This document shows, one piece after another, positions 2,395-16,958 of a stretch of DNA of 24,000 nt; position 1 is the first letter of the stretch; every line of letters begins with the position of its first letter. The translations under genes and the position numbers were made by a program. This stretch comes from Candidatus Micrarchaeota archaeon (GTDB lineage: Archaea > Micrarchaeota > Micrarchaeia > Burarchaeales > JBFMAP01): NCBI GenBank assembly GCA_040755655.1, contig JBFMAP010000002.1:1398-25397 (forward strand), in the 5' to 3' direction. Under the pieces are notes generated by a model, which searched no databases, was not told the DNA's origin, and worked only from the letters and a program-made list of their open reading frames with translations.

Positions 2395-3597
2395 CTAGGA
2401 AGCGCCGAATTTTTCCCTAAGGCGTTTTATGACTTCCTCAAACATACGCTCTGGCAGTGTCTTGTATTTTGGTGGGCAGTGGCAGTTGAACTTGTTATCA
2501 CAACGTCCATGCGTCATGTCCTCCAAGAATTTGGCTACCCTTTTCAAGATAAGTTCAAGCGGTTCCAGCCTGATGTTGCCAAGAGGAGTGCTATAGCCAG
2601 GACATGCGGTCACGTTGCCGTTTAGAGTAAGATAGATTCCGCGCGGCGCTTTTTCGTCATATGCTATCTGGTTACAAGGATGTATTCCGGGAAGTGCGGA
2701 TATGCCTTCTTTTTCGACCTGTGAAAGCGTTTGTAAACCATGTTCTATGTTGTATGAGTATATATCGAACCACAGTTTGATTTTCTCCTCGGTCGAGATG
2801 TCGACGAACTTGAGAAACTTATCTGTGAACTGCATGCCGCTAGTCATTAATGCTGCAGTAACAGGGTAGATGTTGCGCTCTCTTGCAAACACGTAGATAT
2901 CGTAGATTTCCTCTGCATTTTCTTTTACAATCGGATTCGAGCAGAGCGCAAGACGTGTTGGCGTTGCGCTGTTAAAGCCGGCCTCGACGAGATTTGAAAG
3001 CGCCATGTTGCGGATTTCGGTGTATCCTGTCGTGCCGCCAACCAGTTTATCCTGTCTCTCTGGATAAAAGGACTGAAATGAGAGCATAACGCTAGTTTTT
3101 AACTCATACAGCGCTTTGCAAAAATCCAAGGCATTCTTAAACCCGAGATATTCAAAATGTTTTCTTGTTTCCTCATCGTTTCCAATCACATGCCCTTTCG
3201 TGAATATCCCGACTCCTATGTTATTCTTGTTCATCTCGCGTAGAAATTCAAAGAATCCCTTGTTTTCAAATGGCTCGCCAGCACCGCATATCTTGACTGT
3301 TTCCAAGCCAAACTTTTTTGCATTGATTATGAATTTGGTCAATTCCTCGGGCGTGAGGTCTCTCATCGGACCCTCATCGAGAACGCTTTCTCTTCGGAAG
3401 CAGGTAGGGCAGTGCAAAGAGCAATTGTTCCCAAAGTCGATATCCATCATAAGAAGTTTCCCTTTGCTTTTCCGGAGTTTTTCCTCGCTGAAAAAGCCCC
3501 AGTTAGGAAACTCATTCGCCATAGAGGTATTTCTGAACATTGCGTCGTTTTTTGGAATCTGCGGGACAATTTTTTGCATAACCACACCACCACGCAT
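2395..3597 (-). CDS. radical SAM protein with a C-terminal SPASM/twitch-like Cys-rich domain
   Basis: Canonical NCSLHCPTCF (CxxxCxxC), a GAGEPF SAM-binding motif, and C-terminal Cys residues (HPCNQ...TACPG...GRCDNKFNCHCPP). The start may instead be the ATG at 3579, which is preceded by GGTGGTG. Confidence 0.75.
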   Translation of the reverse strand: MRGGVVMQKIVPQIPKNDAMFRNTSMANEFPNWGFFSEEKLRKSKGKLLMMDIDFGNNCSLHCPTCFRRESVLDEGPMRDLTPEELTKFIINAKKFGLETVKICGAGEPFENKGFFEFLREMNKNNIGVGIFTKGHVIGNDEETRKHFEYLGFKNALDFCKALYELKTSVMLSFQSFYPERQDKLVGGTTGYTEIRNMALSNLVEAGFNSATPTRLALCSNPIVKENAEEIYDIYVFARERNIYPVTAALMTSGMQFTDKFLKFVDISTEEKIKLWFDIYSYNIEHGLQTLSQVEKEGISALPGIHPCNQIAYDEKAPRGIYLTLNGNVTACPGYSTPLGNIRLEPLELILKRVAKFLEDMTHGRCDNKFNCHCPPKYKTLPERMFEEVIKRLREKFGAS

Positions 3598-3711
3598 AGA
3601 CGCCTAGCAGCACAGCTAGCGTGCGAATTGGGGATATCATTCTGTGGTTATTATGCACTTCAGCGGATATTAAACCTTGCAACGAAAAATGCCAAACATT
3701 TAAAAATATTG

Positions 3712-3729
3712 AGTATATAATTATATACT
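3712..3729. promoter_or_regulatory. perfect 18-nt palindrome AGTATATAA/TTATATACT abutting the Lrp start codon; candidate operator
   Basis: agtatataattatatact is its own reverse complement. It sits between a TATA-like tttaaaaata (3698-3707) and the ATG at 3730. Confidence 0.4.
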
Positions 3730-4719
3730 ATGGCAAATAGTCTTGTGGATAGGACAGACATGAAAATCCTCTACCATCTCGACGTCGACGCCCGCCAGCC
3801 TTATTCCATAATCGCAAAGAAGCTTAGGATATCGGATGACGCAGTACAGTACCGCGTGACGAGGATGCAGAAGGAGGGCATCATAAAGGGCTTTTATGCC
3901 GTGATAGACCCGTCGGCGCTCGGATACCTGAGCTGCAGGTTCTTCATCAAATTCCACCTCACGACCCCGAAGATGGAGAAGGAGATTGTCGATTATCTCG
4001 TGAACGACCCGCAGTATTGGTGGGTGGACAGCATAGACGGATTCAGGGACTTGGGCGTTGCCTGCTGGCTGCCCAACACAGTTGAATTTGGGAAAAAGAA
4101 AGAGGAACTGCAGGAAAAATTCCGCGAGAATGCGGATATAGTGCAGGAATCCATCTATTCAACGTTTTACCTCTATTCGAGGGCATATCTCGTTGGCAAG
4201 GATGTTGACGATGCAGAGCCAGTAGTATTATGCAGGGAGAAGAAAACGGACGTGGATGCGCTTGACTGGAGGATACTCGAACTTATTGGAAAAAACGCGC
4301 GCGTCTCAAGCCTGGAAATCGCGAAAAAACTGGGCATAACGCCGCCGACCGCGCTCAGCAGGCTGAAACTCCTCAAACAAAAAAACATAATCAGGAGATA
4401 CAGGCCGATGATTGATTTGGGAAAGCTCGGATATTATTGGTACAAGATAGAGTTCAAACTTAGGGACTACGCCGTAAAGAAAAAAATGCTTGATTTTTTC
4501 GCAAGACATCCGAACATCGTGTATGCGTACGAGGCAATCGGCGGCGCGGATTTGGAGGTCGAACTTGAGGTCGAGTCGTACGAGCATTTCAGGGAGATAC
4601 TGGACAGCATCAAGGAAAAATTCGGGGAGGAAATCGAGGATTACCAGCACCTGCTGTGGTACAAGGAGCATAAAATAACGTACATACCGTATCGACCGAG
4701 AGCCGAACCGCAATCCTAA
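3730..4719 (+). CDS. tandem (duplicated) Lrp/AsnC-family transcriptional regulator
   Basis: There are two HTH_AsnC-like modules: DMKILYHLDVDARQPYSIIAKKLRISDDAVQYRVTRMQKEGIIKGF and LDWRILELIGKNARVSSLEIAKKLGITPPTALSRLKLLKQKNIIRRY. Each is followed by an about 80-aa RAM-like region. Confidence 0.8.
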   Translation: MANSLVDRTDMKILYHLDVDARQPYSIIAKKLRISDDAVQYRVTRMQKEGIIKGFYAVIDPSALGYLSCRFFIKFHLTTPKMEKEIVDYLVNDPQYWWVDSIDGFRDLGVACWLPNTVEFGKKKEELQEKFRENADIVQESIYSTFYLYSRAYLVGKDVDDAEPVVLCREKKTDVDALDWRILELIGKNARVSSLEIAKKLGITPPTALSRLKLLKQKNIIRRYRPMIDLGKLGYYWYKIEFKLRDYAVKKKMLDFFARHPNIVYAYEAIGGADLEVELEVESYEHFREILDSIKEKFGEEIEDYQHLLWYKEHKITYIPYRPRAEPQS

Positions 4720-4767
4720 GCAGGGGATAGTTTTATTTTCCTCTCCTTCTTTAACTATTACCCGCGC

Positions 4768-4841
4768 GGGGGAATGGGCTAGCCTGGTTATGCTTCTGGG
4801 TTTGGGACCCAGCGACCTGAGTTCAAATCTCAGTTCCCCCA
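4768..4841 (+). tRNA. tRNA-Pro (anticodon UGG)
   Basis: Acceptor GGGGGAA/TTCCCCC. Anticodon stem CTGGG/CCCAG with loop TT-TGG-GA. T-arm CTGAG-TTCAAAT-CTCAG. Discriminator A. No encoded CCA. Confidence 0.85.
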
Positions 4842-4885
4842 TGTTTTTAAAATAGTTTATCCACATAATAGCCCGAGGATGAGAC

Positions 4886-6355
4886 ATGAAAATAAAAATA
4901 TCGCGGTGCATGAGCACCCAGCACCCTGACAACGTGGCGAACCCGTTCTTCTCAGACCACGCGCTCATTCAGGGCGAGACCGAGGTAAAGGAAGCGTACT
5001 ACGTGTTCTCGCACTTGGAGTGCAGGGAGCAGATGTGGGACTGCGAGGGAAAGGAAGTGGATAATTTCGTCATTGAGAAACTCCTCTCGCGGTACGAGCA
5101 CTTCTTCAAAGAAAATGTGATAGGAAAAGATATTTTCATGACCCTGCGCGTGCCGAACCCAGCAATCGAGAAGAACGAGGGGAAAATCCTTCTCGAGACT
5201 CTTGAATCCATTCCACGGAACTACGATATCGCGCGCGCCCTTTACTCGGACGTCGCGCCCATTTTCGAGGTGATTCTGCCGATGACGTCCTCGTCCGCGG
5301 AGTTGGGGAGGATTTGGCAGTACTACAAGAAAATCGTCGTCGGGAAGGCGGGCGCGCGCCTCGCGAAAAACGACATCAGCATTTCAGAGTGGATTGGCGA
5401 TTTCAGGCCAGGGGAAATAAACGTGATTCCGCTCGTCGAGAATTTCGACAGCCTCCTTAATTCCGCGCGCATAACAGGCGAGTATATCAAAGGGAAGAGG
5501 CTCGAGTACCAGCGCGTTTTCCTCGCGCGAAGCGACCCTGCGCTGAATTACGGCTCCGTGAGTGCCGTTCTCCTCAACAAAATCGCGCTCCAGAGGCTGC
5601 ACGCTCTCGAGGAAAAAACATCTGTCGAGATTCTTCCGATTATCGGGGTGGGAAGCGCGCCTTTCAGGGGCAACATGAAGCCCACGAACACAGGCAACTG
5701 CGCGACGGAGTACCCGAGCGTCCAGACTTTCACGCTCCAATCAGCATTCAAGTACGACTACCCTGAAAAAAGCGTGTGCGACGCGATTGAGAAATTGAAC
5801 GGAACGAAAAGAAACAAGCCGCTTTTCATCGACGAGGGCGCGGCGATGAGGCTCATAAAGAAAGTGATGAAGGAGTATCAATCGCAAATCACTCTTCTCT
5901 GCCCGCTGATAAACAGCATCGCGCGCCACGTGCCTGCGAGGAGAAGCAGAAAGTTGCACATCGGGCTGTTCGGATACTCGCGCAGTTTGAAGGGGATAAA
6001 ACTCCCGCGCGTCATCAGTTTCTGCGCCTCTCTTTACTCAATTGGGATTCCCCCCGAGATGCTGGGGCTGAGCGCGCTCACAGAAAAGGAAATGGAGGAG
6101 TTGAAGAACATTTACGTCGGCTTTGAGGAGGATTTGAGGGACGCGCTCGCGTACGCGAACGAGGAGAATTTCAAATACCTTCCGGCCGCGCTCGGAAAGA
6201 AACTGAAAAAGTCTAAAAAACTCGTCGAGAGCGAGACAAATGCCGACCACGCCGAAATCACGAGTAGGGTGATGAGGAGCGCGGGCAGAGGGGAGACAGG
6301 GGAGCTCCGCGAGGACATCGAGAAGGCTGCGTGGATAAGGAAATTCCTGGGGTAA
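4886..6355 (+). CDS. ppcA: archaeal-type phosphoenolpyruvate carboxylase
   Basis: The N-terminal RCMSTQHPDNV signature and the about 490-aa length match the archaeal-type PEPC family. TATA-like tttttaaaata lies about 35 nt upstream. Confidence 0.85.
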   Translation: MKIKISRCMSTQHPDNVANPFFSDHALIQGETEVKEAYYVFSHLECREQMWDCEGKEVDNFVIEKLLSRYEHFFKENVIGKDIFMTLRVPNPAIEKNEGKILLETLESIPRNYDIARALYSDVAPIFEVILPMTSSSAELGRIWQYYKKIVVGKAGARLAKNDISISEWIGDFRPGEINVIPLVENFDSLLNSARITGEYIKGKRLEYQRVFLARSDPALNYGSVSAVLLNKIALQRLHALEEKTSVEILPIIGVGSAPFRGNMKPTNTGNCATEYPSVQTFTLQSAFKYDYPEKSVCDAIEKLNGTKRNKPLFIDEGAAMRLIKKVMKEYQSQITLLCPLINSIARHVPARRSRKLHIGLFGYSRSLKGIKLPRVISFCASLYSIGIPPEMLGLSALTEKEMEELKNIYVGFEEDLRDALAYANEENFKYLPAALGKKLKKSKKLVESETNADHAEITSRVMRSAGRGETGELREDIEKAAWIRKFLG

Positions 6356-6359
6356 TTCG

Positions 6360-6791
6360 CTACCATTCCTTATTTCTCAGAAAACTTTCCGCCTTCCTTA
6401 AAACTTTTCTCGCGCTCTCGTATGTCAGCTGATTGAGCGCGTCCTCGTAATTCGACCACGCGAATCCGGTGTGCTCGCGCGAAAGCCTTATTTCGCGCGC
6501 ATCAACCCGCGCGAGGAAGAAAACCACCTCCTTGAAAAAAGTCTGCCCCTCGCGCGTATAAAAATATTTTATTTTCTCATTGAAACCAAGTTCGAACTCA
6601 AGCTCGCCAGCGCGGATTCCGGTCTCCTCAAGTATCTCGCGCCGAGCCGCCTGCTCCTCGCTCTCATTTTCCTCCACATGGCCCTTCGGGAAATCCCAGT
6701 GCCCTGCCTCGTAGTGAAGCAGAAGATATTCGCGCGCGCCGTCCTTATTTTCCGAATAGATTATTGCGCCTGCGGAGTTTTCTTTCGGCAT
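6360..6791 (-). CDS. Nudix hydrolase (Ap4A-hydrolase-like)
   Basis: Nudix box GHWDFPKGHVEENESEEQAARREILEETGI. The ORF-track start at 6809 is TTG. The first ATG is at 6791 (MPKENSAGAIIY). Confidence 0.85.
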   Translation of the reverse strand: MPKENSAGAIIYSENKDGAREYLLLHYEAGHWDFPKGHVEENESEEQAARREILEETGIRAGELEFELGFNEKIKYFYTREGQTFFKEVVFFLARVDAREIRLSREHTGFAWSNYEDALNQLTYESARKVLRKAESFLRNKEW

Positions 6792-6812
6792 AATACCACT
6801 CGTTTTCAATTT

Positions 6813-7280
6813 TCAGGTTTCAATCTCCTTGCACATCACATATATTGCCTCGCGCACTCCGGGCGTTATTTTTTTCAGCGCGAACCCGAAATTTCTGTAA
6901 AGATTTATCGCGGGTAAATTTGAGGACTTAACCTTTATCCATATTTTCCTCGCCCCGTTCCTCCGCGCGAACGAAAGCGCGCGATTGAGGAGCGCGCTCC
7001 CTATTCCCTTTCCCTCGTGCCTCCCGTCAACCGCAATCCCATAAATAACTGCACGCGCGCCTGATATTTTCAAATCGACGAAACCAACCACGCGCTCGTT
7101 AATTTCTGCGACGAAGTAGCGCGCGCCCCTCGCAATTCTCTCCTGAACTTTCGCGAGGTTCATCTCCGTGTAGGGAAAGAACGTGTTCGTGAGCGCGACC
7201 ACGCTCTCGTAATCCTTACGCTTTATTTTGCGTATGCGCGCGCCAGTGAACATGTCAGGCATTCGGGGCATCGCGGGCAT
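6813..7280 (-). CDS. GNAT-family N-acetyltransferase (RimI-like)
   Basis: Acetyl-CoA motif A: IAVDGRHEGKGIGSALLNRALSFARRNG. There are several in-frame Met codons at the N-terminus, so the true start is uncertain. Confidence 0.8.
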   Translation of the reverse strand: MPAMPRMPDMFTGARIRKIKRKDYESVVALTNTFFPYTEMNLAKVQERIARGARYFVAEINERVVGFVDLKISGARAVIYGIAVDGRHEGKGIGSALLNRALSFARRNGARKIWIKVKSSNLPAINLYRNFGFALKKITPGVREAIYVMCKEIET

Positions 7281-7349
7281 GGTAATGTTTCGCGCGCGAG
7301 ATAATAAATTTTTATCGCATAGTATCCGCTGCGCGCGTCGCCTCTCCTT

Positions 7350-7383
7350 TTTAAAGGCTTACGATATAGCGTAAACCTTTAAA
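7350..7383. promoter_or_regulatory. imperfect inverted repeat in the divergent GNAT/ATPase intergenic region, with TATA-like ends
   Basis: tttaaaggcttacg-atatag-cgtaaacctttaaa; 13 of 14 positions are complementary. tttaaa at both ends could serve the two divergent genes. Confidence 0.35.
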
Positions 7384-7406
7384 TACCCCTGAGAGTATAT
7401 AGTCTC

Positions 7407-8594
7407 ATGAACGAACACGCATGGAAAATAATTGAAAGTAGGAATTTCTGGCGCAGGGGACCGGAGACAGGGGTGCCTCGGGACGTAACAGAGGAGATAC
7501 TAAAGTACATGAATAGACCGGAGGTTTTATACCTTTACGGTCCAAGGCGGGCAGGCAAAACAACGGTGTGCATGCAGCTCATAAAACATCTTTCAAAAAA
7601 ATACGGGAGGACTTCCTCCGTATACATAAACTTCGAGGAGCCCGCGTTCTCGAGCATGCTGAGCAACGAATTCCTGGAGTGGATAGCGGAAAAATACGCG
7701 TCTGTTTTCTCAAGAAAGCCGAGGTTTGTATTCTTTGATGAAATTCAGAACGTCCCGGCCTGGGAGAAATTTGTCAGAGGCGTCGTGGATAGAAGGGAAT
7801 TTAAAATAATAGTTACCGGCTCCTCTGCAAAATTGCTCAGCTCGGAGTTTTCCACCTCGCTTGGAGGCAGGGGGTTCGGCTTTCGCGTTCTCCCGTTCTC
7901 CTTCATGGAGTTCAAAAAAGCCCTGAAAAAAGCAACTCTTTCGAACTATCTGAAAACCGGGGGTTATCCGGCAGTGGTTCTGGAGAAAGACAGGGAAAAA
8001 CAGGATAGGCAGCTTGAGGAGTATTTCGAGACGGCGATAACAAGGGACATAGCCATAAGGCACGAGGTGAGGGACGTTCCGACGCTGAGGACCCTGGCGG
8101 TATACGTTCTGACAAACTCCGGGAAAATGTTCAGCTACAACAAGCTGCGGGCCCTCACAGGCCTGTCCTTCGATGCGATAAAAACCTATCTCTCATATCT
8201 TGAGGAGGCTTTCGTGGTCTTCCAGGTCCCGTTTTTCTCCTACTCGTTAAAGAAAGCGCTTGAAAAACCAAGGAAATACTACGCTTATGACACGGGCCTG
8301 CAGGGAGTGCTCTCAAAATCTTTCAGCCCTGACCTTGGCAGACGCCTGGAGAACGCTGTCGCGGTTGAACTTGTGAGGAGAAACAAGGAGATCCAGTACT
8401 ACTCAAACAAAACCGAAGTGGATTTTGTCATAAAGGAGGGACTGAACCTGAGCGCGCTGAACGTATGCGCTTCCGAAAAAATTCCAAAAAGAGAAAAAAG
8501 CGGGCTGGAGGCTTTCGCAAGGGAGTTTAAAGTTGAAAACGTTCTCCTGCTTAATGGCGAAAAACGCGTCTCGAAATGGCTGCTGGGGGAATAA
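7407..8594 (+). CDS. AAA+ ATPase of the COG1373 / DUF4143 type
   Basis: Walker A YGPRRAGKTT, Walker B FVFFDEIQ, and an about 395-aa architecture typical of this family. Confidence 0.75.
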   Translation: MNEHAWKIIESRNFWRRGPETGVPRDVTEEILKYMNRPEVLYLYGPRRAGKTTVCMQLIKHLSKKYGRTSSVYINFEEPAFSSMLSNEFLEWIAEKYASVFSRKPRFVFFDEIQNVPAWEKFVRGVVDRREFKIIVTGSSAKLLSSEFSTSLGGRGFGFRVLPFSFMEFKKALKKATLSNYLKTGGYPAVVLEKDREKQDRQLEEYFETAITRDIAIRHEVRDVPTLRTLAVYVLTNSGKMFSYNKLRALTGLSFDAIKTYLSYLEEAFVVFQVPFFSYSLKKALEKPRKYYAYDTGLQGVLSKSFSPDLGRRLENAVAVELVRRNKEIQYYSNKTEVDFVIKEGLNLSALNVCASEKIPKREKSGLEAFAREFKVENVLLLNGEKRVSKWLLGE

Positions 8595-8843
8595 GCATGT
8601 ACACTAGTGGATGAGGAATGAAAAAAAGATTAAACCGGAAGAAAGTGTTTTTTGGGACATCTGCACGAAATTAACCGGACGCGGAAATTGGCTTTAGTAA
8701 CGGCGGGCTCGCAGATCGCGTGAGCTTTCTGCTTACACCCCCGTCCTATCAAAAGGGTCTGCTACCCTCGCCTCATATCGCCTCGTTTTGAGAGTGGCTT
8801 CGTCCTTAGATGCTTTCAGGTCTTATCCATCAGTGCTTTGCCC

Positions 8844-8872
8844 GGCGCGCGCTAAAAAACACGCGACGCGCC
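8844..8872 (-). repeat. GC-hairpin/oligo-U element, copy 1 (29 nt), near the 23S 3' end (about E. coli 2735)
   Basis: RNA sense is GGCGCGTCGCGTGTTTTTTAGCGCGCGCC. It has the same core as the copies at 9769 and 12039. Confidence 0.55.
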
Positions 8873-8998
8873 GTGTGGCTGCCCGGCAGTGCATTTCACA
8901 ACCGGTAGACTAGAGGCACCGAACCCCAGTTCCTCTCGTACTCAGGGGTTCTTACTCTCAGGCGATCAACACTTCTAGGAGATACTACCGAACTGTCT

Positions 8999-9036
8999 TT
9001 GTCGCCCTTCTGACGAAATAAAATTGTCATTAGGGT
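8999..9036 (-). other. 23S insertion, 38 nt, ORF-less (putative mini-intron), about E. coli 2595
   Basis: The conserved accgaactgtct|cgcgacgttctgaaccc (reverse complement of GGGTTCAGAACGTCGCGA|AGACAGTTCGGT) is split. The insert can pair CCCT/AGGG and TGAC/GTCA. Confidence 0.7.
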
Positions 9037-9160
9037 CGCGACGTTCTGAACCCAGCTCGTGTAGGTCTTTAATGGATGAACAACCCAACCATTGGCGGCT
9101 CCTGCACCGCCAGGATGACCTAAGCCGACAGCGATGTACCAAACCGCGGGGTCGATACGT

Positions 9161-9211
9161 ACAACTAACGCTAGTGACGAAACGAAAACCAGTCAACTAG
9201 CGAGAGTTTGG
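9161..9211 (-). other. 23S insertion, about 51 nt, ORF-less, about E. coli 2480
   Basis: There is extra sequence between gtcgatacgt and gtactctcgcccgcgacga, where archaeal 23S normally has only a few nt. It contains ctagtgac/gtcaactag-type pairing. Boundaries are uncertain. Confidence 0.5.
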
Positions 9212-9236
9212 GTACTCTCGCCCGCGACGAGCCTGT

Positions 9237-9292
9237 CTTGGGTCTCGTTAGAAACGCACTGGAAATTCCAGCGCTACGCGTAGCTAACGAGA
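9237..9292 (-). other. 23S insertion, 56 nt, ORF-less, inside GGGGATAA^CAGGCT (about E. coli 2450, PTC core)
   Basis: RNA sense reads CCCCGGGGGTAA|TCTCGTTAG...CTAACGAGACCCAAG|ACAGGCTCG. There is a 9-bp terminal stem TCTCGTTAG/CTAACGAGA. Confidence 0.7.
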
Positions 9293-9435
9293 TTACCCCC
9301 GGGGTAGCTTGTCTGACAGCTTGGACCCTCATTAAAAAGGTGCCAAGGTTCGTTAAGCCCGGCTTTCGCCTCTGGATCCCACGCGTTTAAGGATCCAGTC
9401 AGCCCTGCATTTGTCTTTAACCCTTAACGGCGGAT

Positions 9436-9481
9436 GTCCATACGCCGCTGACCACCCTACTAAAAACTGGTCATCGGCGTC
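9436..9481 (-). other. 23S insertion, 46 nt, ORF-less, about E. coli 2300
   Basis: The hairpin GGCGGGTCAGAA...ATCCGCCG carries 46 extra nt in its loop. These are self-pairing (ACGCCG/CGGCGT, TGACCA/TGGTCA). Confidence 0.5.
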
Positions 9482-9515
9482 TTCTGACCCGCCTAAGCAG
9501 AACATTGGGCGCCCT

Positions 9516-9560
9516 TGTTTCAAGCAGCGGGCGACATTTGAAAATTTGTTTGTCGCACGC
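9516..9560 (-). other. 23S insertion, 45 nt, ORF-less, about E. coli 2270
   Basis: CCCTCGATAAGGAATCG|...|AGGGCGCCC is normally a short closed hairpin. The insert has GCGACA/TGTCGC pairing. Confidence 0.55.
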
Positions 9561-9768
9561 CGATTCCTTATCGAGGGCGTACCGCCCCAGCCAAACTATC
9601 CATCTGCTGCTGTTCCGTAAAGGTGAGGGATATATCAATCGTCGAGCGGTGTTACACTTTCGCCTATCTGCAGCCCGAAAGCTGCAACTTAACGGCTCCC
9701 GCTTACGCTCCGCAACGGCCAACATATCTCAACAACAGACTATAGTAAAGCTCCACGGGGTCTTCACG

Positions 9769-9799
9769 CAGCGCGCGCTGAAAAATACGCGACGCGCTG
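9769..9799 (-). repeat. GC-hairpin/oligo-U element, copy 2 (31 nt), a few nt 5' of the GAAGACCCC block (about E. coli 2055)
   Basis: RNA sense is CAGCGCGTCGCGTATTTTTCAGCGCGCGCTG. It differs from the copy at 12039 by one base. Confidence 0.7.
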
Positions 9800-9946
9800 C
9801 TTCGTTTCCCCCTAGAAGTCCTCCGCATATTCACGGAGTAGTGAGTTCACCAGGTCCCAGATGGGGACAGTGGGAGGCTCGTTATGCCCTTCATGCAAGC
9901 CACCAATTAAGCGGCGAGGTATTACGCTACCTTAAGAGGGTCAGAG

Positions 9947-9983
9947 TATGGGGTTGCGTCTCCAGAAAAAATAGAGACTGCAA
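9947..9983 (-). other. 23S insertion, 37 nt, ORF-less, about E. coli 1905
   Basis: GGGGGTAA|...|CTCTGACCCTCTTAAGGTAGCG. Removing 37 nt restores the usual GGGGGTAACTNTGACCC spacing. The insert has a GTCTC/GAGAC hairpin. Confidence 0.6.
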
Positions 9984-10015
9984 TTACCCCCGCTCTTTGC
10001 CGGCGCTTTGCTCCG

Positions 10016-10130
10016 TTGGAACAGAGTCTCGTCTCGCCCTTTTTCTTTCTTGAAAGGAAAGAAGAATGCAGAGTTTCATTTTCTCTTTTTTGGCACCCTG
10101 CATTTTTTCTCTTTTCCAAAGAGAAAAAAG
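10016..10130 (-). other. 23S insertion or expansion, about 115 nt, low-complexity hairpins, about E. coli 1860
   Basis: This lies between CCGGTACGTCAAACCGCC and GGAGCAAAGCGCCGG, where archaeal 23S has an about 18-nt hairpin. It contains TTTTTTCTCTTT-GGA-AAAGAGAAAAAA and TGCAG...CTGCA stems. Confidence 0.55.
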
Positions 10131-11201
10131 GCGGTTTGACGTACCGGTAGTGAGCAGGCATCGCCCCCTATACTAGGCCTTAAGACTTTGCAGGGAGCTA
10201 AGTTTTTGATAAACAGTCGACCTCCCCTTGTCACTGCGACCTGCAGTTCTTGTAAACCGCAGGCATGGTTTGTCCCGAAGTTAAACCACTAACTTGCCGA
10301 GTTCCCTCACCTGAGTTCTCCTGCCACGCCTTGGCTTTTTAAGCCAGCAGCACCTGTATTAGTTCTAGGTACAATCTCGCGGGATCGAACCGGTTCCCTT
10401 TTCACTGGCTCAAGGAATTAGCTGAACCGCCTTGCGGCGGCCTTCCCGTCTTTAGGCTGTTTCTCCTCATAACGAGTCTCCGCAGCCTTGCGGCGGTTAA
10501 ACGGGATCTCTCCCGCTCGGCCTATCCCCAAGCGTCAGGAATCGGCTTTGTGTCGCCACGTCTACCCGCGGGGCACTGGAATATTAACCAGTTTCCCTTT
10601 TGCATCCGAGTAATTGGCTGGATGCTTAGGATTGGCTTACTCTTGGCTGACGAACGTTGCCAAGAAACCCGTGTGCTATGCGGCGTCCAGGATTCTCGCC
10701 TGGATTTGCTGTTACTAACACCAGGATATGCATTTCTGGTGGGTCCATCGGATCTCAAAACCCGACTTCTACCCCAGCAGAACGCCCTCCTACCAGATGA
10801 GCAGCGCAGCTGCTCCTCCAAGGTCTCGGCACCTGACTTAGCCCCGTACATCTTCGGAGCCCGTACTCTCGACTGGTCCGCTATTACGCGTTGTTTAAAG
10901 GATGGCTGCTTCTAAGCCTACCTTCCAGCTGTTTTGGAATAGAGACTCCTTCTGGCTTCGCACTTAGTCAGATTTTAGGGGCCTTAACCCTGGTCTCGGT
11001 CGTTCCCGTCCCGGCCTGTCAGCTTACCCGACAGAACCCTACTCTCGCCTTCTACGGTGATAATGAATTCGGAGTTTGACAAAACGGCGGACCCTCTCGG
11101 ATCCATTCCGCCAAATCAGTGCTCTACCTCATTATCCACCTCCAGCGAGGTCATCCTGAGGGATGCTTCGGAGGGGACCCGCTATCGCCAAGTTCGATTG
11201 G

Positions 11202-11235
11202 ATTTGACTGGGGAGCGCCTCGAGGCGCTCCCCAT
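11202..11235 (-). other. 23S insertion, 34 nt, ORF-less, about E. coli 812
   Basis: GGGGTGAAAG|...|CCAATCGAAC is split. The insert is the perfect hairpin GGGGAGCGCC-TCGA-GGCGCTCCCC plus short flanks. Confidence 0.6.
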
Positions 11236-12032
11236 CTTTCACCCCTAGGCGTAGGTCACCCGAGCGGATATACCAGCACCGGTTGCGGGCCTCCACCAAT
11301 CGGAAGATCGGCTTCGCCCTGCCCACGTCTAGATCACATTGGCTTCGGGTCTCAGAGAAGTGATTAATCGCACTCGACCGGCGCGCGGCGAATGATAAAA
11401 ACCGCCGAGCGCCGTCTTTCATACGACGCGCCTCACAATCGTTGCGCGCGTTCGCTTTCGCTACGCCTTTCGGCTCACCACTTCAATGAACTCCCTGGCT
11501 CTTGATTCAAGAAGATGGATGGAACCCTGATCCTCGCCCCTCGCTCGGAGGATTGCTCCCCCTCGCTTCGGGGCGCCTCAAATCTTTCAGGCTCCATCAA
11601 CCTGTAACCATTCAGTTTCAGGCTCTTTTCACACCCCTTTCGGGGTCCTTTTCAGCTTTCGCTCGCGCTACTTATGCGCTATCGGTCTCAAGTCTATATT
11701 TAGAGTTGGAGGTTAATCCCCCCGCGTTCGCGCCAGATACCCGACTGACGCTACTCACCGCGCCTAGTTCCTCCCGCGTTTGCCTACGAGGCTATAACTC
11801 TTTGTCGCGAGGCATTTCAGCCCACTTCGGCTCTGCGAAAGGATATATGACGCATCACATCTCCGCGCGAGTTGCCCCGCGGGATTCGAATCGCTCTAAG
11901 CGGCTTTCAGTCGCCCTTACTCACCGCATCCCAATTGGTTTCTTTTCCTGCGGGTACTAAGATGTTTCAATTCCCCGCGTGTTTATCCACTGCTGGACAT
12001 TCGGCAATCTTGGGTTCAAAGGCTGCCTGCGC

Positions 12033-12070
12033 CTGAGCCAGCGCGCGCTGAAAAAGACGCGACGCGCTGT
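12033..12070 (-). repeat. GC-hairpin/oligo-U element, copy 3 (31-nt core 12039-12069 within a 38-nt insertion), about E. coli 75
   Basis: GATAAGCTTGGGGTAG|ACAGCGCGTCGCGTCTTTTTCAGCGCGCGCTGGCTCAG|GCGCAGGCAGCCTTTGA. Removing it restores the usual GGGGnAGGCGCAnGCAGCC. Confidence 0.65.
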
Positions 12071-12323
12071 CTACCCCAAGCTTATCGCAGCTTGCCACGG
12101 CCTTCAATTACCTGAGCCCAGCCATCCCCTGAATGGATTGAACCACGTCCGTGTATTATGCGTGCAGATGTCTCTTCAAACACATTTCTTCCGTCATTGC
12201 GCGCGCCATATAGCGAGCACTGGGACTTCGTTCGAGAAAAACTCTCGAACTGCATTTCAAATCTCATTTACGTGAATAAATGAGCGCGAATTTCGTATGA
12301 ATTTATGGATGGACTCGGCGAGA

Positions 12324-12473
12324 TTCCGAACCGCGGAGGGGGTTCGAACCCCCTCCCCAGTTTCAGGATCCTCCTGACCCTCCCCCACGAGGGCAGAAAA
12401 TTTTCCCGTCCCCAAAAATATTTTCTTTTGGGGCATCGAAAGACCTTTTCTTTTCAAAAGAAAAGGGATTTCG
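12324..12473 (-). other. tRNA-Ala T-loop (about 59/60) intervening sequence, 150 nt
   Basis: It separates GCGAG-TTCAAA from T-CTCGC-CGAGTCC-A. It consists of four consecutive hairpins, including CCTTTTCTTTT/AAAAGAAAAGG and GGAGGGGG-TTCGAA-CCCCCTCC. Confidence 0.7.
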
Positions 12474-12495
12474 TTTGAACTCGCGGCCTCCTCCT

Positions 12496-12519
12496 CTTCT
12501 GCCGGAATTTTATTCCGGA
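12496..12519 (-). other. tRNA-Ala canonical (37/38) intron, 24 nt
   Basis: TCCGGAATAAAATTCCGGCAGAAG lies between G37 and A38 and contains a TCCGGAAT/ATTCCGGC hairpin. Confidence 0.7.
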
Positions 12520-12693
12520 CGCAAAGGAGGCGCTCTACCGCTGAGCTACGAGCCCATAAAATATTTCGGCTTCAAGAACGATTAAACGAACGAACGCTGC
12601 TTGCACTTATGTCGTTTAAATTTCCGATCAGGTTTCATCTCGAAAATTTAAGGAGGTGATCTATCCGCAGGTTCCCCTACGGATACCTTGTTA

Positions 12694-12744
12694 ATCGCCT
12701 TAAAAGCTGCAGCGAGTATATTTCACTGGCAACTTTTAAAGATA
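12694..12744 (-). other. 16S insertion A, 51 nt, ORF-less, about E. coli 1499 (inside the 1492R target)
   Basis: AAGTCGT|...|TAACAAGGTATCCGTAGGGG is split. The insert pairs ttaaaag/cttttaa and tgc/gca. Confidence 0.75.
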
Positions 12745-13027
12745 CGACTTAACCCCCCTCGCAAAGCTCTAGTTCGAAGACGCCAAAAAGCGTCGCCTCA
12801 CTAAAACCTTACTTGGGTGATTTGACGGGCGGTGTGTGCAAGGAGCGGGGACGTATTCACCGCGGGATGTTGACCCGCGATTACTAGGGATTCCAGCTTC
12901 ATGAGGGCGAGTTTCAGCCCTCAATCCGAACTTGGGCTGGGTTTGAGGGATTAGCTCCTCCTTTCGGAGTGGCAACCCGTTGTCCCAACCATTGTAGGCC
13001 ACGTGTGGCCCTGGAGATTTAGGGCAT

Positions 13028-13071
13028 GAGCGGATGTATCGCGCGTACGAATGTCGCGGGATAGGTCCTAT
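13028..13071 (-). other. 16S insertion B, 44 nt, ORF-less, about E. coli 1200-1205
   Basis: GACGGTAGGTCAGTA|...|ATGCCCTAAATC is split. Confidence 0.7.
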
Positions 13072-13180
13072 ACTGACCTACCGTCGCCCCCTCCTTCCTC
13101 CTACTTAACGTAGGCGGTCCCCACAGGGTGCTCTTCTTCCGGAGAAGAAGGTCGCAACTGTGGACGAGGGTCTCGCTCGT

Positions 13181-13753
13181 AACCGGACGATCAGAGCGCA
13201 AAAGCATTAAAGATGTTGCAGCATTTCTTTCGATTCCGCGCGCCTCACGAATTTCGCAATGAAATTCGCAAATTCGCGCGTGTTCATCACCAAAAGTTTT
13301 CCCTTGTTGAAAATGTTGTGAAAACCTAGCCGCTCGAGAAGAAGCGCGTCTTCCTTCGTGCCTCGCGCAATGAAAATTCCCCTTCCCATAATCCCACCGC
13401 GCGCATCGAAAATTCCAGCAAGAAACCGCGCGGAGTATTCATTCTTCCATCTGAAGAAATGAAGCTCCTCGCGCGCGATGTTCTGGAAAAATTTCCTGTA
13501 CGCGGAGTGATGGAAGTAAACCTCCTTCTCCTTCACCTGAATCTCGTTCGGTTTCGCGAGCCCGAGTCGCAGGGATTCCTTTATGAAAATCTCCTGCAGC
13601 GTGCTGCCCGCGGCCACGCCAATCCCCTTCGAGGATGGGCGCGCCTTCCAAATTCCGATGAGATACGCAAGTTCCGGAGTCAGTTTTATTTTCATCTTTT
13701 CACTCTCGAGTTTTTCATCTGGTTTTCATAAGTAAGACTGCGCTCTGAACGTT
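13181..13753 (-). mobile_element. 16S intron C, 573 nt, LAGLIDADG-encoding, about E. coli 1093
   Basis: AAGTCCGGCAA|...|ACGAGCGAGACCC is split. There is a 10-bp perfect pairing of the intron ends (13191-13200 tcagagcgca with 13739-13748 tgcgctctga). Confidence 0.9.
13207..13695 (-). CDS. LAGLIDADG homing endonuclease, compact double-motif (162 aa)
   Basis: Motifs LAYLIGIWKA and ARFLAGIFDARGG. ATG start. The ORF lies entirely inside intron C and in the same sense as the rRNA. Confidence 0.85.
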   Translation of the reverse strand: MKIKLTPELAYLIGIWKARPSSKGIGVAAGSTLQEIFIKESLRLGLAKPNEIQVKEKEVYFHHSAYRKFFQNIAREELHFFRWKNEYSARFLAGIFDARGGIMGRGIFIARGTKEDALLLERLGFHNIFNKGKLLVMNTREFANFIAKFVRRAESKEMLQHL

Positions 13754-13800
13754 TGCCGGACTTAACCGGACAGTTCGCACCACGAGCTGACGATGGCCAT

Positions 13801-13835
13801 TAGTGTTCCAGCAGAGCATACGCTCCGGTGGAATT
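13801..13835 (-). other. 16S insertion D, 35 nt, ORF-less, about E. coli 1052
   Basis: GAGGTGGTGC|...|ATGGCCATCGTCAGCTCGTG is split. Confidence 0.7.
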
Positions 13836-13951
13836 GCACCACCTCTCGGCTCGTCTGGCAAGATCTTTGGTCTGGCCTTCATTCTGCCGTCGCTCCAGGT
13901 AATGTTCCCGGCGTTGAATCCAATTGAACCGCAGCCTCCACCCCTTGTGGT

Positions 13952-14002
13952 ATGGGCGGGGAAAAATCAAAAAGTAATTTCAAAAAATTTGACTTCCCCC
14001 CA
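13952..14002 (-). other. 16S insertion F, 51 nt, ORF-less, about E. coli 932
   Basis: TTGGCGGGGGAGC|...|ACCACAAGGGGTGGAG is split. The insert has G-rich and C-rich ends around an A/T-rich centre. Confidence 0.7.
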
Positions 14003-14015
14003 GCTCCCCCGCCAA

Positions 14016-14047
14016 GTAAGGGGACTGGGTTTTGCAAACCCGTATCC
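14016..14047 (-). other. 16S insertion E, 32 nt, ORF-less, about E. coli 919
   Basis: AACTTAAAGGAAT|...|TTGGCGGGGGAGC is split. The insert has a GGGTTT-TGCA-AACCC hairpin. Confidence 0.7.
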
Positions 14048-14053
14048 ATTCCT

Positions 14054-14653
14054 TTAAGTTTGTTGGAGGAGAGAGTCAACGATTCGAACTTTTTTATGGT
14101 GTTCGAATGGAACAAGTGCAACAAATTTCTTGAAATTTGCTCGCGATGTTATGCAAAAACGCAACGTTCCCGATTTTTTGTCGGCAACGAAGATACGCAG
14201 CGTTTTCACGCCATATTTGTCGAGCCATCTCCGGATAAAATTAAGAGATTCTCGATTCTTCTGGCTGAAACCAATCACGTAGTTTCTTTTACTGGCGTCG
14301 CCCTCGGCATCGAAAAAGCCAGCGATATAATTCGCAATGACTTTATTCCTAGCTCTTCTAATTCTAGTCGGTGTTCTCCATTTTTCTTGTGGAGAAACGA
14401 ACTCGAAATCATTCCTGAAAACGTTGAACGCTTCCATAGAATAAAATCGAGCCCTGAACTGACCAGGTTTATATTCTAATATTGTGACGGTCTTTCCGAA
14501 AGTTTTCTTAACGCGCTTAGCAATCGAATGTACGAGCCATCTGTGGTTTTTTTCGTACCACACGATGGTGTAATTCCTGCTAGCGCGATTGTAGAAAACG
14601 CTTCCGTCACGAAGCGCGCCAACGAGATAAGCTAGGTCTTTGTCGAGGTGCAC
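14054..14653 (-). CDS. LAGLIDADG homing endonuclease, double-motif (about 199 aa from GTG 14653; the frame is open to 14719)
   Basis: Motifs LAYLVGALRDGS and IANYIAGFFDAEGD. There is no usable ATG (the only in-frame Met lies between the two motifs). The first plausible start inside the intron is the GTG at 14651-14653. The stop TAA (14054-14056) lies in the downstream exon sequence CTTAAAGG. Confidence 0.8.
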   Translation of the reverse strand: MHLDKDLAYLVGALRDGSVFYNRASRNYTIVWYEKNHRWLVHSIAKRVKKTFGKTVTILEYKPGQFRARFYSMEAFNVFRNDFEFVSPQEKWRTPTRIRRARNKVIANYIAGFFDAEGDASKRNYVIGFSQKNRESLNFIRRWLDKYGVKTLRIFVADKKSGTLRFCITSRANFKKFVALVPFEHHKKVRIVDSLLQQT

Positions 14654-14678
14654 ATAACTATTAAGACTCTCCCCTTTT
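14061..14678 (-). mobile_element. 16S intron G, about 618 nt, LAGLIDADG-encoding, about E. coli 908
   Basis: GGCCGCAAGGTTGA|...|AACTTAAAGGAAT is split. The intron ends pair 9/10 (14068-14077 with 14665-14674). Confidence 0.9.
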
Positions 14679-14718
14679 TCAACCTTGCGGCCGTACTCCC
14701 CAGGCGGCAGACTTAACA

Positions 14719-14757
14719 CTTGAGCCTGCGCGAGACGAAATTCGCGCGTCTCGTGCA
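14719..14757 (-). other. 16S insertion H, about 39 nt, ORF-less, about E. coli 865 (tentative)
   Basis: There is extra sequence between GTGCCGTAGCGTAGAC and TGTTAAGTCTGCCGCCTGGGG, containing a CGAGACG-CGCGAATTT-CGTCTCG hairpin. This region is naturally variable, so the call is weaker. Confidence 0.45.
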
Positions 14758-14837
14758 GTCTACGCTACGGCACTACAACAGCTCGAAGCTATTGTAACAC
14801 CACAGTCTGCATAATTTACTGCTAGGGCTACTCGGGT

Positions 14838-15551
14838 TTTCAGTATCACTTGAGAAATTTCGCCAATCTTCTTTTTTTCGATTGATGTTTAAGGGAGACG
14901 TGTTTTGCAAACTTCTGCAAATCATCTCTCCCATAGATATAAATCTCGTATTCGGGATTTTTATATCTCGTCCGGGTATAGTTGCTATATCCCACTCCGA
15001 TGCTACTCAAAAATTCGCCAAGAAATTCAAAGACGCTTTTTGAGGTGGTTGAGATGTTGAGTTCGGCTTGTCTTTTTTTGACGCATCCTTCTGCATCAAA
15101 AAGGCCTCCAACATATTCGGCCTGCAAAGACTTACTAAGTTTTTTCATATAAGAAGGTACATGCAAGTTCTGTCGAACTGCGCCTTTCGGCACTTCCATG
15201 ACTTCAACCAGAAACTGATACACCAATACACTCTTTGTATGGCTGTAATACGTGTTTCTGTTTATATCGTGGAACGTGTTTAAATTCACGCCAAAGACAG
15301 ACTTGAAAGCTCTTCTTATTGATTTATGGAACTCTCTGCTCTGCTCGGTGAAGAGTATTCTTCCGCCAGACATATTTCCGTCGCCGTGCAAAATGCCGAG
15401 TAGTCTGCACAGCTCAGGCGTAACGCTGGTTGGAAGATGAACCTTCAAAAGAGGCTTTTTTCGCCCTTTTTTCATAAGGTTTCTTACCCGGTGCTCTAAT
15501 CTCATGAAGAGATTTAGTCGAAAGTATTTATTAGCGTTTCTCAAGTGCGAT
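14838..15551 (-). mobile_element. 16S intron I, 714 nt, LAGLIDADG-encoding, about E. coli 794 (inside the 806R target)
   Basis: GGATTAGAT|...|ACCCGAGTAGCCCTAGC is split. There is an 11-bp perfect terminal stem (14847-14857 cacttgagaaa with 15537-15547 tttctcaagtg). Confidence 0.9.
14846..15505 (-). CDS. LAGLIDADG homing endonuclease, double-motif (219 aa from ATG 15505; 232 aa if the TTG at 15544 is used)
   Basis: Motifs LCRLLGILHGDGN and QAEYVGGLFDAEGC. Same sense as the rRNA. Confidence 0.85.
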   Translation of the reverse strand: MRLEHRVRNLMKKGRKKPLLKVHLPTSVTPELCRLLGILHGDGNMSGGRILFTEQSREFHKSIRRAFKSVFGVNLNTFHDINRNTYYSHTKSVLVYQFLVEVMEVPKGAVRQNLHVPSYMKKLSKSLQAEYVGGLFDAEGCVKKRQAELNISTTSKSVFEFLGEFLSSIGVGYSNYTRTRYKNPEYEIYIYGRDDLQKFAKHVSLKHQSKKRRLAKFLK

Positions 15552-15562
15552 ATCTAATCCGA

Positions 15563-15606
15563 TTTGAACTCGTTGGAGAAGACATTCAATTCTTCAACTC
15601 CGCCGA
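15563..15606 (-). other. 16S insertion K, about 44 nt, ORF-less, about E. coli 781
   Basis: GCTAGGAGAACGAA|...|TCGGATTAGAT is split. The boundary is ambiguous by 4 nt because of a TCGG repeat. The insert has an internal GTTGAAGA/TCTTCTCCAAC hairpin. Confidence 0.65.
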
Positions 15607-15660
15607 TTCGTTCTCCTAGCCTTCGTCCCTCACTGTCAGACGTGTTTTGGTCAAGCGCCT

Positions 15661-15690
15661 TGACGCTGCGCGCGCCCGAGCGCGCGCAGA
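15661..15690 (-). other. 16S insertion J, 30 nt, ORF-less, about E. coli 727
   Basis: CCAGTGGCGAA|...|GGCGCTTGACC is split. The insert is a CTGCGCGCGC-TCGG-GCGCGCGCAG hairpin. Confidence 0.7.
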
Positions 15691-15877
15691 TTCGCCACTG
15701 GAAGTCCTTATAGGATTACAGGATTTTACCCCTACCCCATAAGTACTCTTGACCTCCCCCACTCTCAAGCCCGCCAGTATTTCCTGCACGCCTTCAGGTT
15801 GAGCCTGAAGATTTCACAGGAAACTTAACGGGCCAGCTACGGACTCTTTAGGCCCAATATTCGTGGACACCACTTGG

Positions 15878-15920
<43 letters not shown>

Positions 15921-16112
15921 CCTTATTCTACAAGCGTCTTAAGCTTGTAAAAAGATGCTCGCGTGGAGCATCACTCAGAGTCCCCCTGTCACGCTTTCGC
16001 GCATTGCAGAGGTTTCGCGCCTGCTGCATCCCGTAGGACTAGAACCCTTGTCTCAGTGTTCTTCTCGGGGCTCCAACTCCCATTGCCCCCACTGATTATC
16101 GGCTTGGTGGGC

Positions 16113-16328
16113 TTGCACTGCGAGACCAAAAAACAAAAATCAAAACAAACACCGCAAACTCGAAACTCGAACCCAACAAACAAAAACAAAAAATCACGCG
16201 CTCGCCAACTCGGGTTGGCTCGCGTCATTCGGCGCGCGCGCCTCGAGGCGCGTCTTTTGTTTTGTTGTTGGTGTTGTTGTCGTTGTTTGTGGTGTCGTTG
16301 AGGTTGGTGATTCATTTTGGTCGCGCAT
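16113..16328 (-). other. 16S insertion L, 216 nt, ORF-less long imperfect hairpin, about E. coli 265
   Basis: GGTAGTTGGTGGGGCAACG|...|GCCCACCAAGCCGATAATCAG is split. One arm is CA-rich and the other GT-rich, and the ends pair (accaaaa/ttttggt, gcgagacc/ggtcgcgc). Confidence 0.75.
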
Positions 16329-16958
16329 CGTTGCCCCACCAACTACCTAATCAGGCGCAGTCTTATCCCATGGCAGACCCGGCTGCATTTCACCGGGCTG
16401 TTTAAATCAGGAAGCGTTCCAGCATCCCTGGTCTATCGGGTGTTAGCCTCAGTTTCCCGAGGGTATCCCCGTCCGCGGGGTAAATTGACTACGTGCTACT
16501 GAGCCGTGTGCCGCCCTTCGAAGCTCGAAGAGCAGACTTGCATGGCTTAATCGGACTCTGATAGCAGTGCCCTCCAGCAGGATCAACTGGAGTTTGCACA
16601 CTATGTGCATTCCGCAAGCTGTAAGGCGGATTCGCACTCACATACGTCGTTCCTTGTTTGGTTCTTGAAGCCTGAAGTCTAATCCAAAAGAGCTTGGATT
16701 ACCATTTTTCCTAGAACGCGTTCTTTGAGGAGCGCGTTCGATTATGTACGCTGCAGTGGAAGTGAAAATTTCATCGCACGAAAACTCAGAATTCGCGCTC
16801 TTTACCGCCGGAAACTGCAGCGAGTTTTCGGTAGCATATCTTTTATAGAGCAAGGTTTAAATACGTTTTCCTCTCCCTCGGTGGCGCTCAAAAAACACGA
16901 AGAGTACAATTATATCGCGCAAACTGTATTTTGGTAAAATTATTGCAAAATCTAATTA

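Follow-up and report, generated by a model that had tools for sequence, protein, structure and literature searches.

A spacer tRNA-Ala(UGC) gene with two introns, one of 150 nt at T-loop position 59/60, in a Micrarchaeota rRNA operon

Gene layout and the joined tRNA

A 24,000-nt stretch of the genome of Candidatus Micrarchaeota archaeon (assembly GCA_040755655.1, contig JBFMAP010000002.1, positions 1,398 to 25,397; in the following, the window) carries a tRNA-Ala(UGC) gene with two introns on its minus strand (12555..12310), located between the 16S and 23S rRNA genes. This is probably a functional spacer tRNA gene of a Micrarchaeota rRNA operon, with both introns being of the endonuclease type (bulge-helix-bulge, BHB) and spliced. 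The integrity of the exons, the strict BHB motif of the first intron and the conservation of the second intron's site, with strict BHB motifs in relatives, are established. The gene is arranged in the order GGGCUCGUAGCUCAGCGGUAGAGCGCCUCCUUUGCG, 24 nt, AGGAGGAGGCCGCGAGUUCAAA, 150 nt, UCUCGCCGAGUCCA, all elements described below being on the minus strand unless stated otherwise. Exon 1 (36 nt, 12520..12555, tRNA positions 1-37) encodes the 5′ strand of the acceptor stem, the D arm, the 5′ strand of the anticodon stem and UUUGCG, and is followed at position 37/38 by intron 1 (24 nt, 12496..12519). Exon 2 (22 nt, 12474..12495, positions 38-59) comprises the 3′ strand of the anticodon stem, the variable loop AGGCC, the T-stem 5′ strand GCGAG (12480-12484) and UUCAAA, where intron 2 (150 nt, 12324..12473) interrupts the T loop at position 59/60. 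Exon 3 (14 nt, 12310..12323) contributes U60, the T-stem 3′ strand CUCGC (12318-12322), the acceptor 3′ strand CGAGUCC and A73, with no encoded CCA.

When joined, the three exons give 72 nt that are called tRNA-Ala(tgc) by ARAGORN. This bears out the original prediction, made from the letters of the window, that removal of 24 and 150 nt restores a textbook tRNA-Ala(UGC) with G3:U70 and a GCGAG-UUCAAAU-CUCGC T arm; the coordinates given there for the gene and both introns were every one correct. All cloverleaf stems of the joined product are perfect, including a 7-bp acceptor stem with the G3:U70 pair, and the discriminator base is A73. No pair is broken, and the decay of exons or cloverleaf pairing relative to functional orthologues by which a pseudogene would be recognized was not found. 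Splicing would be expected to join exons 1 and 2 as ...UUUGCG to AGGAGG... and exons 2 and 3 as ...GCGAGUUCAAA to UCUCGCC....

In the scan for BHB motifs, exon ends were represented by 4 helix nt and 2 bulge nt, intron ends likewise, with outer helices on both sides. Intron 1 is the best match in the scanned region and a strict 3-4-3 motif of the hBHBh′ layout, in which two bulges and a central helix H are enclosed by an outer helix h and an inner helix h′. Its central helix UUUG/CAGA is paired at all four positions, the bulges read CG|U and AG|A, and the motif is flanked by the 5-bp anticodon stem on its outside and a 7-bp hairpin on its inside (CCGGAAU-AAA-AUUCCGG). Hence, the canonical intron claimed for position 37/38 is a standard endonuclease-type BHB intron, in exact agreement with the strict 3-4-3 definition (Marck and Grosjean type, as in PMC4090602, PMC6379350).

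The T-loop site in relatives and the expanded intron

For comparison, 13 relatives were available, giving 14 sequences together with the window. One of them, contig CAZWEI010000036.1 (L001), was found via the archaeal-type phosphoenolpyruvate carboxylase (PEPC) encoded 6 kb from the tRNA gene, the nearest relatives of which in a genome scan are from Micrarchaeota metagenome-assembled genomes, with L001 being the best. This contig shows 93% amino-acid identity in PEPC and 86% DNA identity over a 7.3-kb flank, and is syntenic with the window through the 23S gene into the spacer. The other 12 loci (L085-L096) were retrieved by scanning metagenome contigs of the Joint Genome Institute (JGI) with the exon-1 sequence, and all 12 turned out to be 16S-tRNA-Ala-23S spacers. 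According to their 23S 5′ sequences, the window and L001 belong closely together (97% identical), whereas their identity to the others is about 77% and L088 takes an intermediate position.

All 13 relatives bear an intron at the identical T-loop site 59/60, an occupancy by which the T-loop feature is more than chance. The intron measures 20-25 nt in the 12 metagenome loci, 58 nt in L001 and 150 nt in the window. In each of the 12 short introns a strict 3-4-3 BHB motif is formed, cleavage of which gives the same UUCAAAU loop, as exemplified by GCGAG UUCA AA|A GCAG-GUUGA-CUGC UGAA CA|U CUCGC. Here, the T stem lies outside, a short hairpin provides h′, the bulges read AA|A and CA|U, and the central helix between U54-A57 and UGAA is paired at four of four positions (UGGA, with U55.G, in L094). 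Across the alignment of the short introns, 97.9% of the cells pair; H is paired at 100% with one change from UA to UG, and in h′ three pairs change on both sides (GC to AU, CG to UA), compared to 27-45% paired cells in slid controls. Site occupancy, strict motifs and compensatory changes together therefore establish the 59/60 intron as an old, genuine BHB intron of the spacer tRNA. Accordingly, the second, non-canonical T-loop intron that had been proposed stands, with the site occupied in 13/13 relatives and a strict BHB in 12, and the insertion origin that had been hinted at fares differently in its two parts: the intron is not a random insertion, as it occupies an old shared site, and the degenerate 13-nt direct repeat on which the hint was based is real (see below). 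The 37/38 intron, on the other hand, is present only in the window, in L001, where it is the same apart from a 1-nt loop indel, and in L088, which has a 48-nt intron with a strict BHB motif at this position.

The 72 exon bases are identical across the 14 sequences with the exception of one D-loop base in exon 1, at a divergence of about 23% in the 23S 5′ regions. Between the window and L001, all 72 are the same, with 11 mismatches and 15 gap columns in the spacer outside the tRNA and 86% identity in the flanking genes; an expanded, relaxed state of the T-loop intron has therefore persisted despite this divergence without decay of the exons. An intron-free copy with this exon 1 was not found in the JGI metagenome collection by the exon-1 pattern, and a metagenome pattern combining the anticodon loop, 10-40 nt and exon 2 as well as a pattern search of a viral collection gave no matches. 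PEPC homologues in the protein collection led exclusively to contigs ending before the operon or to non-syntenic ones.

Due to the introns, the gene is hardly visible to standard tools. On the unspliced window DNA, ARAGORN reports no tRNA at 12310-12555, and the Rfam tRNA model gives a marginal match at 12476-12555 of 29.5 bits (gathering threshold 29) with the T arm deleted from the model; in L001, too, Rfam is barely at threshold. With intron search enabled, ARAGORN fails to call the spacer tRNA-Ala of the window, and in each of the 12 metagenome loci the gene is either overlooked or given wrong boundaries. A "tRNA-Phe with 158-nt intron" that this program reports on the precursor is a forced, mispaired call and was discarded. 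Being missed by ARAGORN and scarcely seen by Rfam, tRNA-Ala(UGC) would therefore look absent from the whole Micrarchaeota clade, which would feed the idea of DPANN genomes lacking tRNAs.

The minimum free energy (MFE) fold of the 150-nt intron consists of four consecutive hairpins at –74.7 kcal/mol (z = –5.3 versus dinucleotide shuffles), matching the original description of four such hairpins with a T-arm-like one among them. Hairpin 1 (12437..12473; CGAAA..CCUUUUCUUU-UGA-AAAGAAAAGG..UUUCG) begins at the first intron base, replaces the inner helix h′ of the BHB motif and is common to L001. It is followed by hairpin 2 (12410..12433; CCCCAAAA-GAAAAUAU-UUUUGGGG), by the composite hairpin 3 (12364..12408) with the tip CCCUC-GUGGGG-GAGGG, and by the T-arm-like hairpin 4 (12329..12362; GGAGGGGGU-UCGA-ACCCCCUCC plus a 5-bp extension); a palindromic GGAGGGGG-UUCGAA-CCCCCUCC is found among these hairpins. 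In the MFE fold, hairpin 4 is a 9-bp stem with a G/G mismatch. The same segment can alternatively be drawn as a strict 3-4-3 BHB enclosing 19 nt (GGGG[AG|G]...CCUC[CG|C]), probably an artefact of slippage in its G and C runs. A stretch of 14 nt covering the tRNA leader and first bases (AAAUAUUUUAUGGG, 12553-12566) resembles the 3′ half of hairpin 2 (AAAUAUUUUUGGGG, 12410-12423) at 12/14 positions, a similarity that could be due to chance in A/U-rich sequence or be another trace of local duplication.

The intron ends in a tail, CCGCGGUUCGGAA (12324..12336), that had been described as a degenerate copy of the end of exon 2, CCGCGAGUUCAAA. The resemblance holds up, as the alignment score of the 13-nt tail and the exon end is reached by 1 in 20000 shuffles and the tail is the sole such place in intron 2; the tail may have arisen by duplication. 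In L001, the corresponding alignment score is –3, and the T-arm-like tail copy is lineage-specific. What the window and L001 have in common are the first 36 nt of the intron (hairpin 1) and the final GAA, while 111 nt covering hairpins 2-4 (12327..12437) have no L001 counterpart other than about 20 nt. A search of the window and of 1.19 Mb of related loci turned up no further copy of this segment or of intron 2 as a whole, short matches in L003 and L010 being A/U-rich chance matches. In short introns, h′ leads straight into H_B, the intron-side strand of the central helix; between the 3′ strand of hairpin 1 and H_B, L001 has an insert of 17 nt and the window one of 107 nt (hairpins 2-4).

In the window, intron 2 derives from the short form by expansion, and its BHB motif is degraded rather than canonical. 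The direction from short to long is the parsimonious reading of the sequences, as opposed to a rooted inference. Both long introns end in a sequence resembling the T-stem 5′ strand followed by AA (GCGGUUCGGAA in the window, ACGAGAA in L001). If the exon end were copied exactly, just two of four positions could pair with U54-A57, and three of four are reached with different tails, UCGG in the window and CGAG in L001; such different routes to the same number of pairs would be consistent with continued selection for a cleavable motif. Taken further, the series of 20-25, 58 and 150 nt might be read as a record of how a BHB intron grows, with the 5′ strand of the T arm having been duplicated into the intron tail, possibly by recombination with cDNA of the spliced tRNA or by slippage, and each lineage re-tuning its tail to pair with U54-A57. 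Processing of each pre-rRNA transcript would then set free the 150-nt multi-hairpin RNA in a stable and possibly circular form, with a role of its own or as a checkpoint by which the maturation of tRNA-Ala is coupled to that of the rRNA. As a whole, we regard this scenario as quite unlikely.

Probable splicing of the 150-nt intron and competing explanations

In the 59/60 register, the 5-bp T stem serves as the outer helix, and the central helix is formed between strand H_A (U54 U55 C56 A57, 12476..12479) and strand H_B (UCGG, 12326..12329). Directly 3′ of H_B follows a proper 3-nt bulge with the 3′ splice site, A-A|U60 (12325, 12324, 12323). The bulge of the 5′ splice site consists of A58 and A59 (12474-12475) and the first intron base, so that this site (AA|C) adjoins the base of hairpin 1 within a multi-helix junction. 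As H is incomplete and h′ is not contiguous with H_B, the strict hBHBh′ definition does not apply to intron 2; a relaxed motif (hBH/BHL) can be drawn that combines the T stem and the AA|U bulge with an imperfect H, in a fold 8.6 kcal/mol above the MFE. A BHB structure is present in strict form at intron 1; at intron 2, the best that can be drawn is this relaxed one, with three of four H pairs.

Several observations weigh against splicing of the expanded intron from a functional gene. At none of the sites 56/57 to 59/60 does intron 2 allow a strict BHB that yields the tRNA, and the three pairs of the central helix in the 59/60 register (U54.G, U55.G, C56xC, A57-U) include two of the G.U type. 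Relative to the MFE, this register is less favorable by 8.6 kcal/mol in the window and by 4.6 kcal/mol in L001, compared to 1.6-2.3 kcal/mol in the strict relatives; in the window, the difference arises because the preferred partner of U54-C56 is the intron's final GAA, with U60 as the sole bulged base. Moreover, the hairpins of the expanded form are without covariation support because only two sequences carry it, and identity at all 72 exon positions between the window and L001 would be reached by chance in about 4% of cases at the mismatch rate of the spacer, which makes it a modest argument.

Other ways of resolving the precursor were considered and rejected. A 7-nt UUCNAAU loop results from cleavage at 56/57 to 59/60 and at no other site, and none of these sites is better than 59/60 as a BHB. 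Taking the T-arm-like hairpin as the true T arm (GCGG-UUCGGAAU-CUCGC), with an intron before position 49, leads to a non-canonical loop and is impossible in L001, where the tail would give CGAG-AAU-CUCG. Strict-looking 3-4-3 motifs inside intron 2, one of 19 nt within hairpin 4 and several in hairpins 1-2, were dismissed as nested introns, being G/U- and A-rich slippage the removal of which restores no outer BHB. A second tRNA or tRNA half inside the intron was likewise not supported, with no second Rfam tRNA match at E <= 10.

Under the favored explanation of a functional gene with two spliced introns, the pre-rRNA transcript would fold and the archaeal splicing endonuclease would cut both bulges of each intron. 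The Micrarchaeota enzyme would be of the broad-specificity epsilon2 type characterized from ARMAN-2; among 20 ORFs (open reading frames) of the window scanned against Pfam, none encodes a splicing endonuclease. The exons would be joined by an RtcB-type ligase, which probably also circularizes the introns, with a circular 150-nt intron carrying the junction GGUUCGGAA-CGAAAUCC, and the tRNA would be released from the spacer by RNase P and RNase Z. Within the lineage shared by L001 and the window, intron 2 would have grown to 58 and then to 150 nt, the motif being relaxed with the T stem and the AA|U bulge left intact, and the extra hairpins would most likely represent tolerated, self-folding filler rather than a functional RNA. 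We infer the cutting of the 150-nt version, the identity of the cutting enzyme and the neutrality of the filler, all three, from these comparisons.

Alternatively, as already allowed for in the original prediction, the gene might be a disrupted pseudogene; insertions or duplications would then have damaged a short 59/60 intron and abolished its BHB while another gene supplies tRNA-Ala(UGC). The degraded H helix and the 8.6 kcal/mol required for the canonical register would fit this, as would the failure or near-failure of standard detectors on the gene. Intact exons could then be due to a recent event or to a spacer constrained for rRNA processing; indeed, the entire spacer is well conserved between the window and L001, so that exon identity is weak evidence. 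However, the exons match those of all 13 relatives apart from the one D-loop base, cloverleaf and identity elements are perfect, and intron 1 has kept a perfect BHB. Also, the relaxed, expanded state is common to L001, whose flanking genes have diverged by 14%, and the T stem, the AA|U bulge and three of four H pairs have been kept in both lineages by different sequences. Furthermore, the Micrarchaeum endonuclease accepts relaxed introns at 59/60 as substrates (PMC3239211), and no intron-free copy with this exon 1 was found in the JGI metagenomes. Altogether, we consider a pseudogene rather unlikely.

A selected function of the expanded intron itself, for instance as guide sRNA, stable circular RNA or protein-binding module timing tRNA and rRNA processing, appears distinctly improbable. 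It would be favored by a fold far better than that of shuffled sequences, and excised archaeal BHB introns are commonly circularized. A precedent also exists with the C/D guide in the tRNA-Trp intron (PMC4090602). In contrast, the intron has no C box even with one mismatch allowed, a single CUGA and no ACA, which confirms the absence of C/D-box motifs noted before; nor were H/ACA or K-turn elements found in it, and no Rfam family, snoRNAs included, comes near threshold. The hairpins are made of low-complexity A/U and G/C runs, and the 111-nt middle part is missing in L001 and has no other copy in the related DNA. Still less probable is the footprint of a mobile or integrative element in the T-arm region, with the 13-nt tail copy as target-site duplication or att remnant. 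The insert does lie between degenerate 13-nt copies of the T-arm 5′ strand in direct orientation, and tRNA 3′ halves are common archaeal integration sites (PMC4090602), but its boundary falls exactly at the older intron site present in all relatives, its 5′ third (hairpin 1) is common to L001, whose intron has no alignable repeat, and terminal inverted repeats, coding capacity or other copies were not found in the window and the 1.19 Mb from relatives. Group I and group II covariance models do not match in 12150-12660 either, and 150 nt would be too short for such introns besides. Intron 2 is neither box C/D-hosting nor of group I or II, and appears to be without the hallmarks of a mobile element.

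Operon context and comparison with known systems

The rRNA genes enclosing the spacer tRNA are rich in insertions themselves. Upstream, the 16S rRNA gene (12651..16593, identified by Rfam) extends over 3.9 kb and, compared to L088 and L092, contains about five insertions of 216, 765, 725, 457 and 49 nt (~16113-16328, 14838-15602, 13952-14676, 13189-13645 and 12694-12742). Two of these harbor LAGLIDADG ORFs according to Pfam (14846-15544 and 14054-14719), and a third a 162-aa ORF without Pfam match (13207-13695). As no group I signature was detected in the 16S insertions, they are probably BHB-type rRNA introns. Downstream, the 23S rRNA gene (8676..12151, also by Rfam) exceeds the Rfam model by about 490 nt, with blocks unaligned to the 23S of relatives at ~10028-10133 and 9163-9292, and L001 differing again in the 3′ half. 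Flanking inverted repeats represent the usual processing stems around 16S and 23S. With the operon being saturated with insertions, its maturation would therefore need many splicing-endonuclease cuts, two of the introns concerned lying within the spacer tRNA. In L003, L005, L006, L010 and L014, the 23S gene is isolated and preceded by a protein-coding gene instead of 16S and tRNA-Ala. Since these other Micrarchaeota with a 23S gene near PEPC lack the upstream 16S and tRNA genes, the linked 16S-tRNA-Ala-23S operon is a sub-lineage feature.

Insertions in the rRNA genes of relatives differ from those of the window; the 16S of L089, for example, spans about 5 kb (2850-7824), and the 23S of L014 contains an Rfam group I intron (57 bits, 4342-4632), as reported for Micrarchaeota (PMC6125680). 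Another large length change at a single intron site within the phylum is seen in orthologous class II tRNAs, the 37/38 intron of which has about 90 nt in L014 (21191-21362) and about 36 nt in L010 (14097-14215). Elsewhere in the window, a tRNA-Pro(UGG) gene on the plus strand (4768-4841) shows a weak D stem with a G.U pair, two Watson-Crick pairs and U:U, recalling the reduced D arm of ARMAN-2 tRNA-Pro (PMC3239211). An ORF at 21394-22557 encodes the C-terminal part of an alanyl-tRNA synthetase class II core together with the "second additional domain", which marks it as an AlaX-like editing protein; its presence in the same window as the tRNA-Ala gene is a co-occurrence only.

Introns of the kind described here have precedents in ARMAN-2 (Ca. 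Micrarchaeum), in which 56% of the tRNA genes are disrupted; its epsilon2 endonuclease cleaves in vitro a relaxed hBH/BHL intron of 13 nt located at 59/60 of pre-tRNA-Cys, and tRNA-Pro(GGG) is interrupted both at 53/54 and at 59/60 (PMC3239211; PMC6379350; PMC12397907). The type of splicing endonuclease is known for ARMAN-1/2 only (PMC3239211). Since 59/60 introns, relaxed ones included, are documented in Micrarchaeota, the position is not novel; also known from this phylum are relaxed motifs, outer helices formed by the T stem and tRNAs with more than one intron (PMC3239211). Compared by description, intron 2 of the window agrees with that of ARMAN-2 pre-tRNA-Cys in phylum, T-loop position and use of the T stem as outer helix, as well as in the relaxed motif that can be drawn for it, with a proper 3-nt bulge at the 3′ site and no closed bulge at the 5′ site; the combination of a 59/60 intron with a second intron in one tRNA is likewise found in ARMAN-2. 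Intron 2 differs in being 150 rather than 13 nt long, in a central helix with a C-C mismatch and two G.U pairs, in a loop side of the motif that is a junction bearing four hairpins, and in its host, an rRNA-spacer tRNA-Ala.

The strict hBHBh′ type (PMC4090602, PMC6379350) is fitted exactly by the 59/60 introns of the 12 relatives and missed by intron 2 of the window, with its incomplete H and displaced h′. With the intron of tRNA-Trp(CCA) in which a box C/D sRNA is nested (PMC4090602), intron 2 has in common that both are long, structured introns in an archaeal tRNA, whereas it is located at 59/60 instead of 37/38 and is without C/D boxes. Insertions like the rRNA BHB introns with LAGLIDADG homing endonucleases known from Thermoproteales (PMC4496867) are present in the same operon, and those of the 16S gene presumably depend on the same splicing endonuclease as the tRNA introns. 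In contrast to them, the tRNA intron is too short for encoding a protein and has no evident homing function.

New compared to these systems are the conservation of a 59/60 site across a clade and the length of 150 nt, which is beyond the range of 11-129 nt (medians 12-25 nt) given for archaeal tRNA introns in a 2014 review (PMC4090602), as well as the three extra hairpins, owing to which the motif has a junction on its loop side. The rRNA-spacer tRNA-Ala as intron host may be added, as no report of an intron-bearing spacer tRNA-Ala was found in the literature searched, which is absence of evidence only. The known picture of archaeal tRNA splicing is left unchanged by the finding; here, even the spacer tRNA of an intron-crowded rRNA operon would rely on the splicing endonuclease. 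With strict introns of 20-25 nt and relaxed ones of 58 and 150 nt at one orthologous site, the clade provides a natural substrate series that could be used for probing how far the epsilon2 endonuclease tolerates loss of the BHB motif, and how introns expand under such tolerance.

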